DNA of 51,802 nt from the sequence record NC_031050.1; one strand, 5' to 3'. The stretch comes from Escherichia phage vB_EcoS_NBD2. Position numbers and translations under genes: made by a program. Of the stretch, positions 9,424-49,571 are shown in pieces. A model generated the notes under the pieces. That model had not been told where the DNA came from. It searched no databases and worked only from the letters and a program-made list of their open reading frames with translations. Numbering within the stretch: the stretch's first letter is position 1; each line of letters starts with the position of its first letter.

Positions 9424-9511
9424 GGAAGGATGGCAGAGAGGACGATTGCGCGCGGTTGCTAACCGTGAAGCCGGAAACGGCTCAAGGGTTCGAATCCCTT
9501 TCTTTCCACCA
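9424..9511 (+). tRNA. tRNA-Ser (anticodon GCU), class II with long variable arm, CCA encoded
   Basis: Hand-folded cloverleaf: acceptor GGAAGGA/TCTTTCC (one G-U), U8, D-stem GCAG/TTGC, anticodon stem CGCGG/CCGTG, loop TTGCTAA (U33, GCT, A37), variable arm GCCG-gaaa-CGGC, T-arm AAGGG-TTCGAAT-CCCTT, discriminator A, CCA. Confidence 0.8.
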
Positions 9512-40147: not shown

Positions 40148-40876
40148 ATGAAAGACGTTGCAGACAAAGACACTCATGACGCATTCGTAACCTTCGAACA
40201 GGTTGAGCGTGAGAACTTCATCACAAACGCGCTCGTTCCAGGTTGCGGGCATTATTCGGCGGTCAAGCCGGACACGTTCTATCAGGTTACGGGCAACCGT
40301 TATGCCGGAAGCAAGACGCCGGATGTTGTGCGCGATTTGTGGGCTACCGATCGCGAGCTTATCGGCTGGATGGAAAAGCGTTACGGCAAGTATGACATTG
40401 ACGCGGCAGCGAGCGAAAACAACGCAGTGTGTGAAAAGTTCTACGACGAAAAGCGCAACTGTTTGAAAATCTGGTGGGGCAAAGACAAGCACATCTGGCT
40501 CAATCCTCCGTACTCACATCCCGATCCTTTCGTTAAAAAGGCGATTGAGCAGATGGAGCACGGCAACCAGATTGATATGCTTCTTCCTGGCGACAACTCA
40601 ACGGCATGGTTTGCCGAAGCGCGAGCAAACGCGGCGGAGGTCATCTGGATTGAGGCAGAGATCACAGAGATTGACCAGCAGGAATACTGCCGAACCGGAC
40701 GCCTGGCCTTTATCTCTGGGCTAACCGGAAAACCAGTTGACGGCAATAACAAAGGCAGCGTGATTTTCATCATGCGCGAACTGAAAGAAGGCGAGACACA
40801 ACAAACGCATTACGTTTCCGTAAGCGAGATTTGCCCAGGTGTTAGCCGTAAAAAACCACGCAAGCGGAGTGTTTAA
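40148..40876 (+). CDS. dam: DNA N6-adenine methyltransferase (phage Dam-type)
   Basis: Catalytic NPPY motif in IWLNPPYSHPDPF. Confidence 0.7.
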   Translation: MKDVADKDTHDAFVTFEQVERENFITNALVPGCGHYSAVKPDTFYQVTGNRYAGSKTPDVVRDLWATDRELIGWMEKRYGKYDIDAAASENNAVCEKFYDEKRNCLKIWWGKDKHIWLNPPYSHPDPFVKKAIEQMEHGNQIDMLLPGDNSTAWFAEARANAAEVIWIEAEITEIDQQEYCRTGRLAFISGLTGKPVDGNNKGSVIFIMRELKEGETQQTHYVSVSEICPGVSRKKPRKRSV

Positions 40877-43831: not shown

Positions 43832-44319
43832 CGATGAAGAAGATCGCAAGCATGGCATTTGGCGCAGCGCTTGCCGCAACGGTTCCGTTAATCGAAAAGT
43901 TTGAGGATGTCAAATACGATGTTTATTACGATATCGCTGGCATCCCTACTGTGTGCGCAGGCATCACAGGATCAGACGTTATCATTGGTAAGCGGTACAC
44001 GAAGCGCGAGTGTGACGCATTGCTAATGAAGCATTTAGCGGTTGCGAAGGCGGAAGTTGACAAGCAAATCAAAGTTGATGTGCCGGACTCTTTCCGCGCG
44101 GCAATGTACAGCTTCACCTACAACGCAGGCACGGGCGCTTATCGTAAATCAACCATGCTGAAACTCACCAACGCTGGCGATCTCAAGGGCGCGTGTAATC
44201 AGTTGTGGTCATGGGTTTACTTCTACAACCCGAAAACGGGCAAAAAAGAGAAGTCGAAAGGCCTTAAAAATCGCCGTGGCTTCGAATATGAATATTGCAT
44301 GAAGGATCTGAAAAAATGA
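43828..44319 (+). CDS. endolysin, T4-lysozyme-like with N-terminal signal-anchor-release (SAR) segment
   Basis: Weakly hydrophobic Ala/Gly-rich N-terminus followed by E...D...T catalytic pattern ([21 protein letters not shown]). Confidence 0.65.
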
Positions 44320-44735
44320 AAAGGCTTTACAAATTAATCAAGTGGATTTTCATCGGGTTAAGCGCAATTGTCATTTGTGGTTGTTCGGCAACGTCTGCCC
44401 TGACTGGTTTAATCGGCAGCAAGCCAGAAATCAGCGCGCAGGCTGGCGCGGAAAACACGAAACAGACGGTTGGGATCAATGGCAAGGTTGACCAATCCAG
44501 CGAGGTTGAGACAACCATCAAAGATTCAACCGTTGGCAAGGTTGACACGTCTAACGGAAAGAAAACCAGCGCCTCAAGCATAACGGCTGACACCATCAAG
44601 GCCGATAAGATTGAGATCAGGAATCAGGAAGGCGGCGATGTTGCCGGATGGATTGCGCTATCTGGCGTTGTTGGTCTGTTTATTTTGCTGGGCGCGTCTG
44701 CGCTACGGAAACGACGATATGAGAAAGGAGCCTAA
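44316..44735 (+). CDS. unimolecular spanin (T1 gp11-like)
   Basis: N-terminal signal with Cys-containing lipobox-like region (IVICGC) and a single C-terminal TM helix. Confidence 0.55.
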
Positions 44736-44752
44736 CGGCTCCTTTTTTTTAT
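44728..44752 (+). terminator. intrinsic terminator after lysis cassette (GGAGCC-taac-GGCTCC plus T9)
   Basis: Overlaps spanin stop codon. Confidence 0.7.
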
Positions 44753-44946
44753 TTGAATCTCTGCACGAGCAAGATCAATTCCCCATCCTGGTTGCATAAC
44801 GTGTGCTCCATCTTCTTACCCGCCCGCATTGAGGTATTGATCAGAGACAGGAGCGCGGCGTTTAACTGATCTTCAGTCAACCCATGCTCCGCGCTGTACC
44901 GGATCACCTCGTTAATTAGCCCCTGCCTTTCCGAATAATTCCTCAT
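44749..44946 (-). CDS. hypothetical protein
   Basis: 65-aa ORF, last gene of - strand operon starting at 46859. Confidence 0.35.
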   Translation of the reverse strand: MRNYSERQGLINEVIRYSAEHGLTEDQLNAALLSLINTSMRAGKKMEHTLCNQDGELILLVQRFK

Positions 44947-45307
44947 CGCTCAATTTCTCAATATTCATCATTTCCCAGGTGTATCGGTCTTTGTCTCCGC
45001 CATAGCACCTGAAATCAAATTCAAAGGGGCGTTTCTGCGCTCCCTTTGCCCCATACCAGCGATTTTCTCCCCATAAGTAACCCAACCCCATCATCCTTGC
45101 GCAAAACTCCTTAGATGCGCTTGAGGCGAAGAATCTGGGCGTTACTCCAGCGGCGCGGGCTAATCGCTCACACTCACGATGTTTGAAGATGAAAACCGCC
45201 AAATGCTGACGGTTGAATTTTTCGTAAGACTCACAAAAGCGGTAAATGTCAAGAAGAAACATATCATCATCCCAGGAGGCGAGGGTTAACGTAAACTTTA
45301 TCACCAA
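44912..45307 (-). CDS. hypothetical protein
   Basis: 131-aa ORF overlapping 3-prime end of the P-loop gene; alternative start at 45262 just after the upstream stop. Confidence 0.4.
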   Translation of the reverse strand: MVIKFTLTLASWDDDMFLLDIYRFCESYEKFNRQHLAVFIFKHRECERLARAAGVTPRFFASSASKEFCARMMGLGYLWGENRWYGAKGAQKRPFEFDFRCYGGDKDRYTWEMMNIEKLSDEELFGKAGAN

Positions 45308-46859
45308 TCACGCAGCAATAGCCCTTTTCCTCCAGTTGAGGGAGTAGGTGATCTTTGATGCGCGTCATTGTTCCGGCCTGGCCTTCGAACGGCTTCACCT
45401 TTCGCGCCGCCTCATACAGAGAACGGACGTTAACAACCCCTTTAGGCGATCCGCTCTTTGCTCCACGGCTCATTATGTCTAAAAGCTTGTTCATTTCCGC
45501 GTTATCCCCAGCGTGCCCAGCGGCGTTTGCGGAAGATAAATACGTTTTACTCAACTCGTGAAACATAATGATCGCCTCTTGCATCGTGTCTAACTCGATC
45601 TCACGAGACTTTGCCGCCGATCCCTTCTCGCTAAACCAGTTGCGCACAGTATGCAGAACGGATGCGATGCGGATTACCTGCTTGTCAAACTTACCCAGGG
45701 CACCGCGTAACATGGTGTGGGAATACTTGCCGCCGTCTGCAAGGTGAGGCTCCATTTCCTGACGCGCTTTGTTCAGGTAGCGCATACCGGACGGGCTAAC
45801 CGTCAACTTCACATCTACTTCGCTCATGATCGCGTGAACCAGCTTGAAGTAATCGGCCTTTAGGCCTCCATCGATCGGCTCGTAAGTCGATTCGCCTTGC
45901 TCGTTGACGAACTGGCGACGGCCTAAGAAAGACTCCTCACGCACCAACAAGAAACGCTCAGAAACACCGATACCGCGCGCGCCTGCATTCATGATGGCGT
46001 TGATTGTCTCATCTTGGGCGATAACAGAAATGCAGCCCAGCGCAACGAATGACATATTGTTATCCGCGTTAGCACGAGCGATCGACACGTTGCCCGCATC
46101 CCACGCTTTAAGCACCAATTCGCTGTTTGTTTTCTTCGAGCCGTCGCCGTAGGTCATGCCCAGAAGGGAGTTAACGCTTGTTGCTTCGTCCGAGATCACG
46201 GCGAAGTTGCCTTGACGGTTGTTAATGCGCGCCAGGCCTTCTGGTGTGGTATCAGATACCGGAAACACGATATCACAAAGGCGCTCAAGCTTTTCTTCTA
46301 ACTCTTCTTTCTCTTCGAACAGCGCCGCCATATCTGACGGTGATTTCTCCTGCTTCATTTCCTTCGCCAGCGCCGAAAGCTTCGCCATGATCTTCTTTCG
46401 ATCACGCTTGCGGATCTCGTTGAGTCGCTCAGTCTCCGAAATCATTGGAGCAAGGGAGAGTGAGTTGATAGCAGACTTCCCCGTCGATGGAGGCTGACTA
46501 GTGACAACGTAAAGCGCCGTTGGTTGTTGCGTGCCGTGATACTCAACCGTGAAGCGCCCAAGCATCGCAGCGGAAACGCAGCCCAGGAAATGAATATAGG
46601 CCGATGACTCTGGGAACTGCACAGATCGCGCAGCGTTACGCGAAAGCTTGCCCACAACGTCAACATCATTGCCCAGAGAGATCACGGGGTATTTCTCGTT
46701 CCCGTTGTCGATTTCGGTCGGCTCGTTCCAGAACGATTGAGAATGACGATAGCCATTCGCATTGATCGCAACGCGCAGCGGAGTTAGGCCGCTCGTGTTG
46801 GCGATTTCAATGATCTGTTGTGGTGTAAGCGTGTTTGTGTTGAAACCTAAATCAAACAT
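45267..46859 (-). CDS. P-loop NTPase protein of unknown function
   Basis: 530 aa; Walker A-like QPPSTGKS and Walker B-like FAVISDE; RBS aaaggag; motif promoter upstream. Confidence 0.6.
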   Translation of the reverse strand: MFDLGFNTNTLTPQQIIEIANTSGLTPLRVAINANGYRHSQSFWNEPTEIDNGNEKYPVISLGNDVDVVGKLSRNAARSVQFPESSAYIHFLGCVSAAMLGRFTVEYHGTQQPTALYVVTSQPPSTGKSAINSLSLAPMISETERLNEIRKRDRKKIMAKLSALAKEMKQEKSPSDMAALFEEKEELEEKLERLCDIVFPVSDTTPEGLARINNRQGNFAVISDEATSVNSLLGMTYGDGSKKTNSELVLKAWDAGNVSIARANADNNMSFVALGCISVIAQDETINAIMNAGARGIGVSERFLLVREESFLGRRQFVNEQGESTYEPIDGGLKADYFKLVHAIMSEVDVKLTVSPSGMRYLNKARQEMEPHLADGGKYSHTMLRGALGKFDKQVIRIASVLHTVRNWFSEKGSAAKSREIELDTMQEAIIMFHELSKTYLSSANAAGHAGDNAEMNKLLDIMSRGAKSGSPKGVVNVRSLYEAARKVKPFEGQAGTMTRIKDHLLPQLEEKGYCCVIGDKVYVNPRLLG

Positions 46860-46879
46860 TAAAAACTCCTTTGTTGGTT

Positions 46880-46930
46880 CCGGCTAATGTACCGGAACCA
46901 TGATACAGACGTTGTGCAAAAAGTGCTATT
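46880..46930 (-). promoter_or_regulatory. motif-containing promoter region for - strand P-loop operon
   Basis: Reverse complement of 46911-46930 is AATAGCACtttTTGCACAAC; TATCAT-like hexamer follows on - strand. Confidence 0.4.
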
Positions 46931-46932
46931 GG

Positions 46933-47349
46933 TTAGAGATATTTCGCTTCAAAGGTTGTACCGTCTGCGATCGAGAAGCCAACCTCTTCGCGGTACAGAC
47001 TCCAGCGGCAACCATCGTTATCGAAGATGTAACCAGCAACCCCGCCCAGCGCGCGCCCCGTTTCCACCTGGTAACGTTTCCCAACCGTGAAAGACTTTTT
47101 CACGGGGTTTTTGTGATCCAGCGCCATGCACTTGAGGGTTTTCGTTTTCAACTCAACGAAGCGGGCGAACACAGAGCCATCACCATTGGCACCGAAGATT
47201 TCACCGCTAACGCCAACCGAAAGGAAAACTTTGCTCTTTCCGGTTCCGGTTGAAATGTTGCCCTCATCGTCAATGCGCGCCTTGATCAGAGTATTGGCGG
47301 CGAAAGATTTGGTTGATGTTTCGGTTACTTTCAGTTTGATAGTTTTCAT
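46933..47349 (-). CDS. hypothetical protein
   Basis: ORF 46933..47436 trimmed to ATG at 47349 (MKTIKLKV); upstream part overlaps small membrane peptide gene. Confidence 0.45.
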   Translation of the reverse strand: MKTIKLKVTETSTKSFAANTLIKARIDDEGNISTGTGKSKVFLSVGVSGEIFGANGDGSVFARFVELKTKTLKCMALDHKNPVKKSFTVGKRYQVETGRALGGVAGYIFDNDGCRWSLYREEVGFSIADGTTFEAKYL

Positions 47350-47359
47350 GATGAGATCC

Positions 47360-47452
47360 TTATACGATCGCGAAGTAAAGAGTTGTGATGAATCCAAAAG
47401 CCAGCCCAGCCAGAGCAAAGAGAACAGCGCCTCCAACCATTAAATCTGCCAT
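47360..47452 (-). CDS. small hydrophobic peptide (30 aa)
   Basis: Translation MADLMVGGAVLFALAGLAFGFITTLYFAIV; motif promoter upstream; below ORF-track cutoff. Confidence 0.35.
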   Translation of the reverse strand: MADLMVGGAVLFALAGLAFGFITTLYFAIV

Positions 47453-47490
47453 TTGAACCACCTGTTTTGTTGTTTCGTTTCGATGTAGTG

Positions 47491-47534
47491 ATAATAACAA
47501 AACCCGCCGAAGCTGGTTTAACAAAAAGTGCTAT
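47491..47534 (-). promoter_or_regulatory. motif promoter on - strand (22-23 nt, TATTAT-like)
   Basis: Reverse complement of 47515-47534 is AATAGCACtttTTGTTAAAC. Confidence 0.45.
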
Positions 47535-48220
47535 TTTGCGTTAGCCTGGAAAACGGCGCGTGCAAAGCCGCGAGGCGTTAGCGATCGGAGTTGCTTAGTC
47601 TTTGCAGACTTTCCGCCGAGGAACTTCCATCCCCAAAAGAAGTGAATCCCTTCATCATCCGGCAATTCCAGCTTTTTCGGTTGTTCGAAGCCCTCGCCAC
47701 ACCAGATACAAGTTTTCTTCGTGTAGCCATCGCGCAGCGGCATTTTCGGATGCCATGAGCCTTCATCGGCGTTGACGTAATACCCAAAATCGCGAGGGTG
47801 AAAATAGAAGTTTGGCTTGCCCATCATATCTGGATTTGAAAGCTTACCGACCGGATTCTCAATCATCCACGGCACGCCGAACGATTCGCCCAGAGACTTA
47901 ACGATCTTTGCATTCTCCAGGGCATATGCTAGTTCATCCTCTTCGCGGGCATGTTTCGCGCCTGAGTGAGCAAACAGCGTGCAATCTGGGAAGCCGAAGA
48001 TTATCCCAGGTTCAGGAATGCCCAGCAACCCGCATTTAATCTGGAAATCCTTGTCAATCCACATGTTGACGTAATGCAAATTTTCGTGCTGCATCTTCAC
48101 AGCGTACTCGCCATGATTGCCGGAATCCGCGTTGAAGCAGTAGACATGATAACCAGCAGTCGCCCAGGGCAAACCCATGATGCCTGAGCCATCAAACAGT
48201 GACCAAACAACCTTTTTCAT
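47531..48220 (-). CDS. putative DNA methyltransferase-like protein (cytosine-5 MTase-like motifs)
   Basis: Motif I-like LFDGSG, Cys-containing FPDC where PCQ is expected, ENP where ENV is expected; only 229 aa. Confidence 0.35.
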   Translation of the reverse strand: MKKVVWSLFDGSGIMGLPWATAGYHVYCFNADSGNHGEYAVKMQHENLHYVNMWIDKDFQIKCGLLGIPEPGIIFGFPDCTLFAHSGAKHAREEDELAYALENAKIVKSLGESFGVPWMIENPVGKLSNPDMMGKPNFYFHPRDFGYYVNADEGSWHPKMPLRDGYTKKTCIWCGEGFEQPKKLELPDDEGIHFFWGWKFLGGKSAKTKQLRSLTPRGFARAVFQANAK

Positions 48221-48465
48221 TCTGCAACCTCTTCAAATTTAGCAACGCCCAGAATCACCCATCCTGACGGGTAAGCCGTTACAGCCTGCCAACTGCTCGA
48301 CCCGTTCCGGCGCTTCTCGTCACCAATCACGATGGCATCGGCTCCAGCGCGTTCGGCCTCGTAAACCTTCCCCTTCGTGAAGTGGGGCTTTTGCTTCTTA
48401 TCGGTTGGCGACACCGCGCCAGTGCATTTGAGTTTCATACTTCGCCTTTTAAAACGGGATTTCAT
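48217..48465 (-). CDS. hypothetical protein
   Basis: 82-aa ORF in compact - strand operon. Confidence 0.4.
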   Translation of the reverse strand: MKSRFKRRSMKLKCTGAVSPTDKKQKPHFTKGKVYEAERAGADAIVIGDEKRRNGSSSWQAVTAYPSGWVILGVAKFEEVAE

Positions 48466-48682
48466 TTATGCAGTTATTGCAAACCGCGTCAATGGTGCAG
48501 GTGCAGTGATGCACGTAAACAGCAGGGGCGCTGCCGGATGGCGTGCTTTCCGCGTCCATATCCATCGCCCCAAGAGCAACATCTAATTCAACGCAACCGT
48601 AAGCAACCTTGAGCGCCCACTCCGCGTTAAGTCCCGCATCAATCGCCGCGCGGTGACGGCTCCAGAAATTATTTTGCTGCAT
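48449..48682 (-). CDS. hypothetical protein
   Basis: 77-aa ORF, overlaps neighbours. Confidence 0.35.
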   Translation of the reverse strand: MQQNNFWSRHRAAIDAGLNAEWALKVAYGCVELDVALGAMDMDAESTPSGSAPAVYVHHCTCTIDAVCNNCINEIPF

Positions 48683-49031
48683 GTTTTTTAAACTCCCGAA
48701 GTTTAGCCGCGCATGACTTGCTGCATGTTTTGCCCCAGCCTCGCGCGAGGTCTGCTTTTTTCACTGCGTAAACTCGCGGGCACCCAGGAGCCTCGCAGCA
48801 CTTCATTGCATTGCTTTTGCCGTAGCCGATAGGCTTCCCGCCACCTAACGCGATGTGAGTTTCTCGCGGTGAGTCATCCTTCTTTGTTCGCCAGAATTGC
48901 TGCACACTGGCGATCACTTCCCCATCTTCAGACAAGAGGATCAGAACTGCCTTTTCGCCAGATTCTACAACTTCGCACATGTGCTGCTTATCGTCACCGA
49001 ACTTGATGAGTACGCGATCGCCAGCTTTCAT
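48669..49031 (-). CDS. hypothetical Cys-containing protein
   Basis: 120 aa with clustered cysteines (CCEAPGC...CSKSC). Confidence 0.45.
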   Translation of the reverse strand: MKAGDRVLIKFGDDKQHMCEVVESGEKAVLILLSEDGEVIASVQQFWRTKKDDSPRETHIALGGGKPIGYGKSNAMKCCEAPGCPRVYAVKKADLARGWGKTCSKSCAAKLREFKKHAAK

Positions 49032-49291: not shown

Positions 49292-49336
49292 ATTATGCCA
49301 AATCACGCCGGATTAGTTTTAACAAAAAGTGCTATT
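49292..49336 (-). promoter_or_regulatory. motif promoter on - strand (22 nt, CATAAT)
   Basis: Reverse complement of 49316-49336 is the motif; -10 is reverse complement of 49292-49297. Confidence 0.5.
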
Positions 49337-49571
49337 TCAATTTTATTTCGTTGTACGCGCAGAACTCAATCACGTACTCGCATTCGCTGGGCGACTCACT
49401 ACCTCGAAGCACATCACAGCCGCCCTGACTACCCAGAAACGCTGGGCAGGTGATGCACAACTCACCGCCGCATTTCGATTCAACGATTGACAACCCGTTA
49501 CACCTCCCGCCGCCGAATCGGTGCGGGAAGTCATAGGCCATGCAATCGCAGGTAACTTGCTTCCGCATCAC
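49332..49571 (-). CDS. hypothetical cysteine-rich protein (possible zinc-binding)
   Basis: 79 aa with about 11 Cys including CxC and CxxC pairs. Confidence 0.45.
   Translation of the reverse strand: MMRKQVTCDCMAYDFPHRFGGGRCNGLSIVESKCGGELCITCPAFLGSQGGCDVLRGSESPSECEYVIEFCAYNEIKLK

Follow-up and report, generated by a model that had tools for sequence, protein, structure and literature searches.

The dcm-like gene and its phage family

The stretch of DNA analysed here, referred to as the window, is the 51,802-nt sequence of Escherichia phage vB_EcoS_NBD2 (NC_031050.1). It contains an open reading frame (ORF) of 229 codons with an ATG start, which lies on the minus strand (Table 1); the plus-strand translation of the same interval was interrupted by stop codons throughout. 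An earlier reading made from the letters alone (the sequence-only reading) had proposed that this ORF, here called the dcm-like gene, encodes a second DNA methyltransferase besides a Dam-type enzyme, and had quoted three motifs, all of which are present at the residues listed in Table 1. Family membership, the predicted fold and experimental data on orthologues bear out the proposal of a second enzyme and place it in the cytosine-5 (C5) type.

Table 1. Positions of the dcm-like gene, its motif codons and associated features in the window
Feature	Position	Strand	Remarks
dcm-like gene, 229-aa orphan DNA cytosine-5 methyltransferase, compact phage family PHROG 757	47531..48220	-	
Motif I codons, LFDGSG, residues 8-13, S-adenosylmethionine (AdoMet)-binding loop	48182..48199	-	Paired with canonical motif I FxGxG by hhalign
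Motif IV codons, FPDC, residues 77-80	47981..47992	-	Cys80 is the predicted catalytic nucleophile
Motif VI codons, ENP, residues 121-123	47852..47860	-	Glu121 is the counterpart of HhaI Glu119
YTKKT codons, residues 166-170, at the canonical motif VIII QxRxR strand	47711..47725	-	Register deduced
C-terminal conserved block RSLTPRGFARAVF codons, residues 212-224	47549..47587	-	Closest by sequence to motif IX
Shine-Dalgarno-like AAGAGG	48228..48233	-	7 nt upstream of the dcm-like ATG; read directly from the sequence
Upstream 82-aa ORF, function unknown, PHROG 4448	48217..48465	-	TGA overlaps the dcm-like ATG as ATGA
Dam-type N6-adenine methyltransferase, NPPY at residues 119-122	40148..40876	+	Pfam PF05869, PHROG 111

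The spacing of the Shine-Dalgarno-like sequence and the ATGA overlap with the upstream ORF place the dcm-like gene inside a tightly packed leftward operon, and the overlap suggests that the two genes are translationally coupled. A scan for promoters and terminators around the gene found sites no more frequently than in shuffled sequence, and the fold stability of the downstream intergenic region was not above that of shuffles.

The DNA of the region was 95 % identical to that of Klebsiella phage vB_KM5a1_KLB19 and 93 % identical to that of Klebsiella phage vB_KaeD_HazelMika (Drexlerviridae, Vilniusvirus). In HazelMika the matching 690-nt gene carries the annotation 'putative C-5 cytosine DNA methylase', and approximately 7 kb from it lies a gene annotated as 'putative DNA adenine methyltransferase'; the annotation of the whole HazelMika genome lists no further base-modification gene (no CmoA, TET-type dioxygenase, glycosyltransferase or ligase). 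Between the dcm-like gene and its HazelMika orthologue there were 47 synonymous and six non-synonymous codon differences, giving a ratio of non-synonymous to synonymous change (pN/pS) of 0.03. The Dam-type enzyme with its NPPY motif was also correctly recognized by the sequence-only reading; it matched Pfam PF05869 with an E value of 8.6e-59 and was 65 % identical to the Dam of phage T1.

The 229-aa protein matched the PHROG 757 'DNA methyltransferase' profile with an E value of 8.1e-79 (residues 1-228 on profile positions 13-219 of 247). A large protein collection contained 2109 homologues, several of which, from enterobacterial genomes, bear the NCBI name 'DNA cytosine methyltransferase', and tblastn detected relatives in 1483 phage records. 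The PHROG match, the 2109 homologues and the low pN/pS go well beyond what chance would give. The carriers were mostly Escherichia, Klebsiella, Salmonella and Shigella phages of ~50 kb, together with myoviruses of 130-166 kb and the linear-plasmid prophage phiKO2; annotations among the tblastn matches included 'Dcm-like C5 cytosine methyltransferase', 'C-5 cytosine-specific DNA methylase' and 'DNA methyltransferase'. An exhaustive profile search gave 1781 clusters at the 50 % identity level (E <= 1e-3), nearly all of 200-260 residues. The remark of the sequence-only reading that the protein is short for a C5-methyltransferase is therefore right, and it applies to the whole family (~200-260 aa); the unusually small architecture is a property of that family and not of this window in particular. 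The family is widely annotated and partly characterized, so that the finding is correct but ordinary.

Within the Drexlerviridae the gene is flanked in the leftward operon by small ORFs and a DUF3987 helicase, with no restriction enzyme as partner, and this arrangement was the same in HazelMika, PaulSarasin, KarlJaspers and AAS23. One bacterial chromosome has a homologue next to the integrase of a lambdoid prophage, within its early region and again with no restriction enzyme nearby. Phage T1 (NC_005833) possesses the same leftward operon (44105-48674), but no dcm homologue was found in it by tblastn, either at the syntenic position or elsewhere, which indicates that the gene is an accessory cassette in the Drexlerviridae and not core equipment. 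The dcm-like gene is thus an orphan, accessory, phage-borne methyltransferase gene.

The compact domain was also seen within very large proteins of uncultured phages. Two matches in BFVD, A0A6J5SE15 (1397 aa) and A0A6J5NPY6 (1126 aa), contained it at 26-27 % identity and a template modelling (TM) score of 0.65, and one of the two is annotated as 'Helicase/UvrB, N-terminal', which suggests fusion of the compact methyltransferase domain to DNA-translocating modules.

Conserved motifs, predicted fold and relation to canonical enzymes

Conservation was scored over 79 diverse family members. Residues C80, E121, P123, P142, Y166, K168, T170, W173 and P181 were invariant, and F77, P78, N122, R212, S213, P216 and G218 were conserved in at least 90 % of the members. 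The window protein carries all the family-invariant features, namely the motif IV Cys, E-N-P, Y-x-K-x-T, W173, P181 and the R-S-x-T-P-x-G block. Of the canonical C5-methyltransferase motifs, motif I FxGxG (as FDGSG), the catalytic Cys of motif IV and the Glu and Asn of motif VI are present. Cys80 aligned with Cys82 of the K42/KarlJaspers enzyme, which has been mutated experimentally, and with the PC motif of HhaI, Dcm and DNMT3A; ENP aligned with ENV, and Glu121 corresponds to K42 E128. The sequence-only reading had called the catalytic motif atypical. This holds for the closest subfamily, to which the Asp before the cysteine is confined, but not for the family as a whole, whose motif IV consensus, FPPCTDLAVSGA, is an ordinary P-P-C.

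The C-terminal part departs further from the canonical pattern. Motif VIII QxRxR was not found; the strand at its place reads Y166-T-K168-K-T170, in a register taken from sequence and secondary structure (a following W-x-G-N-like stretch and a model strand at residues 170-175), and is preceded by an insert of ~17 residues. After motif VIII there are 54 residues with one conserved block; in canonical enzymes this part comprises a recognition domain of 80-100 residues and motifs IX and X. This block, RSLTPRGFARAVF, shared seven of 10 residues with motif IX of Escherichia coli Dcm, RRLTPRECARLMGF, by BLASTP; motif IX was also the best match in a scan of Dcm with the position-specific scoring matrix (PSSM) of the family (z 3.9), and hhalign placed the block on motif IX with low local confidence. 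The candidate assignment of the block to motif X, with Arg212 replacing Gly-Asn as in DNMT3A and CmoX, is the less likely one, as PSSM, BLASTP and hhalign all favoured motif IX. A GN-type motif X was found neither by the family PSSM nor by hhalign; with the block read as motif IX, this motif is absent and the cofactor pocket would be closed in another way. The last 25 residues of the structural model form a predicted helix-loop-helix, a topology that may fit a motif X-like role as well.

Residues 6-109 (104 residues, N-terminal only) matched positions 4-100 of Pfam PF00145 at 12.1 bits (E 0.13), below the cut-off of 22 bits, and only four of 64 close relatives matched PF00145 at E <= 0.01, the best at 3.1e-6. 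An NCBIfam search with the 229-aa protein gave no match. HMMER searches of solved structures with the single protein and with two family profiles matched no C5-methyltransferase, which sets the family far from PF00145; this negative is overridden by the fold search. AlphaFold, supplied with 64 sequences of the family, gave a model with a mean predicted local distance difference test (pLDDT) score of 90.9 and a predicted TM (pTM) score of 0.89; the predicted fold is that of a class I methyltransferase, C5 type. Foldseek placed DNMT3A/B at the top (E 5.5e-8), and in a fold search of viral models the best matches were phage cytosine methylases. Profile search and structure prediction, the two computational checks that the sequence-only reading had suggested, agree (PHROG 757; C5-type fold), and its description of the protein as a divergent relative is apt.

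The family profile was aligned by hhalign with a profile of four families (DNMT3A, HaeIII, HhaI and Dcm, the sequences of which were checked against PDB entries) at a probability of 89.8 % and an E value of 1.8e-6; the alignment covered motif I, motif IV (FPPCT/FPCQ), motif VI (ENP/ENV) and the DYG stretch ahead of motif VIII. Profile-profile alignment against a narrow, HhaI-only profile had been mis-registered and non-significant, and was still weak when E. coli Dcm alone was added. In HMMER comparisons of the family profile with DNMT3A, HaeIII, HhaI and Dcm, only motifs I-IV were aligned (motifs I-VI for Dcm), so that the correspondence of motifs VIII-X cannot be fixed by sequence alone. Compared with the PF00145 enzymes M.HhaI, M.HaeIII and E. 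coli Dcm, the window protein is 100-240 residues shorter and lacks the large recognition domain; it has YxKxT in place of QxRxR and a single block after motif VIII, so that motif IX or X is missing. BLASTP against E. coli Dcm aligned only a 10-residue patch and revealed no likeness to its recognition domain; 'Dcm-like' is thus a name for a presumed target, not for sequence kinship. The catalytic domains of mammalian DNMT3A and DNMT3B were 13-16 % identical in sequence to the window protein and differ from it in possessing RxR in motif VIII and a clear motif X (GRSWSVPV); DNMT3 works as an oligomer and has regulatory domains.

Proposed function and target specificity

Experimental support comes from orthologues. 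A preprint on retron Ec86 (bioRxiv 10.1101/2023.08.16.553469) describes escape mutants obtained from phage K42 (a 95 % relative of the BASEL phage KarlJaspers), and all four were hit in a gene of 711 bp encoding a 'Dcm-like C5 cytosine methyltransferase'. Expression of K42 Dcm was toxic only with the retron present, whilst a C82A/E128A/K175A/K176A mutant was inert, and K42 Dcm raised the 5-methylcytosine (5mC) content of the multicopy single-stranded DNA (msDNA) as measured by liquid chromatography coupled with mass spectrometry (LC-MS) (bioRxiv 10.1101/2023.08.16.553469). According to the same preprint, 34 of 35 retron Ec86-sensitive phages had a Dcm homologue, and changing CCTGG in the msDNA abolished defence. 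Later papers treat phage Dcm as an established trigger of retron Ec86 (Eco1). The KarlJaspers (Bas06) protein, bas06_0055 (236 aa), aligned with the window protein along its whole length at 46 % identity (E 3e-66), and its Cys82, Glu128, Lys175 and Lys176 are Cys80, Glu121, Lys168 and Lys169 in the window protein. It also shares the locus, with small ORFs upstream, a DUF3987 helicase downstream, and Dam and a lysis cassette to the left. It differs in belonging to another subfamily, with FPPC instead of FPDC and an insert before motif VIII that is four residues longer, and the host of K42/KarlJaspers is E. coli, whereas the window phage is taken as a Klebsiella phage.

A second orthologue of the FPPC subfamily, gp52 of Pantoea phage vB_PagS_AAS23 (Drexlerviridae, Sauletekiovirus), was likewise 46 % identical and syntenic, and has a Dam-type partner. 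The authors of the AAS23 study found no conserved domain in gp52 by BLASTP and identified it by HHpred only; they reported virion DNA resistant to EcoRII and MboI, i.e. Dcm- and Dam-methylated, with host Dcm not excluded. Papers on Klebsiella Drexlerviridae routinely list a pair of Dam and cytosine methyltransferase as anti-restriction equipment. No direct methylome of a phage with a compact Dcm-like enzyme was found in the literature, and Korf et al. (2019) contained nothing relevant.

On balance we favour, with modest confidence, the reading that the window protein is an active, AdoMet-dependent orphan DNA C5-methyltransferase which, most probably at CCWGG, shields the phage DNA together with Dam. 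The present analysis showed membership of the family, the predicted fold, conservation of the catalytic residues, purifying selection and synteny. Activity of the window protein itself and a benefit against restriction are inferred, and the conventional view of an anti-restriction purpose is plausible. The chance that CCWGG is the target was judged to be about even, an extrapolation because the segments that probably read the DNA are the least conserved.

Under this reading the protein would be a product of the leftward operon in a Klebsiella phage of Vilniusvirus-like type (T1-like, Drexlerviridae). As in C5-methyltransferases generally, the target cytosine would be flipped out and attacked at C6 by Cys80, with Glu121 protonating N3; the LFDGSG loop would hold AdoMet, whose methyl group would pass to C5, and the cysteine would be released by beta-elimination. 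Replicated phage DNA, and any other DNA in the cell, would become methylated, most probably at Dcm-type CCWGG, and on entry into a new host this methylation, with that of Dam at GATC, would protect the phage against restriction of the EcoRII type and other restriction that is sensitive to methylation. In hosts with retron Ec86/Eco1, which senses phage methylation on its msDNA, the same activity would be a liability.

The site content of the whole window was compared with base-composition expectation. CCWGG occurred 163 times and GATC 342 times, 1.6-1.7 times above expectation, counts that fit methylation protection of both sites. Other sites were nearly or wholly missing (CCSGG 0, GGWCC 0, GGNCC 1, RCCGGY 0, CTGCAG 1), and 21 of the 64 hexamer palindromes were absent (~12.6 occurrences of each being expected), including GGTACC, GGATCC, CCCGGG, GAGCTC, CTCGAG, GTCGAC and TCCGGA. 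The site pattern of HazelMika was the same as that of the window; in T1, 11 of 64 hexamers were absent and CCSGG occurred 65 times.

Several observations weigh against the favoured reading, and many of them speak for an active C5-methyltransferase with a target other than CCWGG (shorter, looser or dimer-dependent), an alternative that is distinctly less probable but has to be taken seriously. The segments likeliest to read DNA were only 40 % (residues 149-165) and 27 % (residues 183-204) identical, with gaps, to those of the tested K42/KarlJaspers type, and with ~50 residues taking the place of the 80-100-residue recognition domain of canonical enzymes, another target is conceivable. The lack of likeness to the Dcm recognition domain points the same way, as do the closest solved folds, DNMT3A/B, oligomeric enzymes whose small recognition loop reads CpG only. 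CCWGG was assigned to K42 Dcm on the model of E. coli Dcm, with the msDNA mutants that lost defence as the only support (bioRxiv 10.1101/2023.08.16.553469). Moreover, the host in that work was dcm+ MG1655, in which the phage enzyme activated the retron whereas host Dcm did not, and control msDNA was low in 5mC (bioRxiv 10.1101/2023.08.16.553469). This fits awkwardly with an identical specificity of host and phage Dcm: either host Dcm spares the msDNA hairpin, or the target or substrate preference of the phage enzyme differs. CCWGG statistics were rejected as a test of the target; non-avoidance of CCWGG has no diagnostic value, as the site is not avoided in T1 either, a phage lacking the gene, and as the hosts carry their own Dcm. 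The experimental support, in addition, appears confined to FPPC-subfamily orthologues at 46 % identity, and the BASEL study found methyltransferase genes abundant in the Drexlerviridae with no simple link to restriction resistance. On the level of sequence, the PF00145 score under the cut-off, the Asp-Cys in place of the Pro-Cys dipeptide, the unmatched HMMER search of solved structures, the YTKKT strand in place of QxRxR and the missing GN-type motif X would also count against the favoured reading. In favour of CCWGG stand the EcoRII resistance of AAS23 DNA, the 34 of 35 sensitive phages with a Dcm homologue and the effect of the CCTGG change in the msDNA. Dcm-type methylation (CmCWGG) escapes McrBC, which would favour Dcm specificity in enterobacterial phages. 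It is a tentative possibility, graded well below the favoured reading, that the enzyme uses the ordinary methyl donor and that its ~50-residue region reads a non-CCWGG target by a mode unseen in solved C5-methyltransferases.

The sequence-only reading had also allowed for a different base-modification chemistry and, given the atypical catalytic motif, for an inactive relative. A C5-methyltransferase fold that transfers another group, either from carboxy-S-adenosylmethionine (carboxy-SAM) to give 5-carboxymethylcytosine, as in phage CmoX, or as the start of a hypermodification, is highly unlikely here. CmoX of Synechococcus phage S-B43 (PDB 8YF3), a DNA cytosine C5-carboxymethyltransferase of 333 aa with SPPC and Arg350, uses carboxy-SAM through an Arg at the position of the motif X Asn; it needs a phage CmoA and often a ligase, neither of which is annotated in the 93-95 % identical genomes of relatives of the window phage. 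Of the features that mark the CmoX type (SPPC, an Arg at the motif X Asn and a phage CmoA nearby), the window protein has FPDC (FPPC in the other subfamily) for the first and no annotated CmoA; the near-identical HazelMika also has no annotated ligase, TET or glycosyltransferase gene. The best reading of the sequence puts Arg212 in motif IX and not at the motif X Asn, and DNMT3A has an Arg there too (GRSW) yet uses ordinary AdoMet. The tested orthologue, furthermore, gave 5mC by LC-MS. The rebuilt cofactor pocket, with no GN motif X and a near-invariant Arg-Ser, might accept carboxy-SAM made by host CmoA, so that some 5-carboxymethylcytosine or other non-methyl group would result; this is the most improbable of the variants considered, and the milder version, a non-CCWGG target with the ordinary donor, is likelier. 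A catalytically dead protein, or one with a role other than DNA methylation (binding DNA as a decoy or regulator, or forming m5C in RNA as Dnmt2 does), is very unlikely as well, if marginally less so than transfer of another group: since the nucleophile and the general acid (Cys80 and Glu121) are fixed in the family and the pN/pS of 0.03 indicates strong purifying selection, an inactive relative is disfavoured, and the 46 %-identical orthologue is active.

With the active C5-methyltransferase as the favoured reading, the phage carries the usual orphan pair of the Drexlerviridae, Dam and a Dcm-like C5 enzyme, in addition to a very strong loss of restriction sites, and the pair and the site loss together would make up its anti-restriction strategy. 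The dcm-like gene is a predicted weak point in hosts with retron Ec86/Eco1, which is relevant to the choice of Klebsiella phages for therapy. The scientific interest rests with the family, C5-methyltransferases of ~230 residues that lack a canonical recognition domain and are altered in motif VIII and in the C-terminal motifs; it lies in the target sequence and in the structural basis of recognition by so small an enzyme.

Neighbouring genes and other observations in the window

The 181-nt gap between the dcm-like gene and the next gene contains an ORF of 30 codons (47360-47452, minus strand) with its own GGTGG ribosome-binding site. Its product, MADLMVGGAVLFALAGLAFGFITTLYFAIV, is hydrophobic throughout and probably a small membrane peptide; in AAS23 an ORF of 44 codons (gp51) is annotated at the matching position. 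The ORF of 167 codons downstream of the dcm-like gene (46933-47436, minus strand) probably has its real start at the ATG at 47349, giving 138 codons (MKTIKL...), as its match to PHROG 2684 begins at residue 33 and the HazelMika annotation is 417 nt long; its function is unknown. Two genes downstream of the dcm-like gene lies the 530-aa DUF3987 protein (45267-46859, minus strand; PHROG 2373 'DNA helicase'), the position of which relative to dcm was constant in HazelMika, PaulSarasin, KarlJaspers and AAS23, and which is present without dcm in T1.

Two early proteins of unknown function have the look of zinc-binding proteins. One, of 120 aa (48669-49031, minus strand; PHROGs 22491 and 21416), contains the cysteine cluster CCEAPGCP...CSKSC; the other, of 79 aa (49332-49571, minus strand; PHROG 5016), contains several CxxC-like pairs.

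Over the whole window GCGC occurred 471 times and CGCG 359 times, as against 199 expected from base composition (ratios of 2.4 and 1.8). Both counts matched trinucleotide expectation (Markov observed/expected ratios of ~1.0 and 0.85), which makes them a trait of composition and not of selection on the tetramers. A lone tRNA-Ser gene (anticodon GCT) is located at 9424-9511 on the plus strand and is annotated in HazelMika too.
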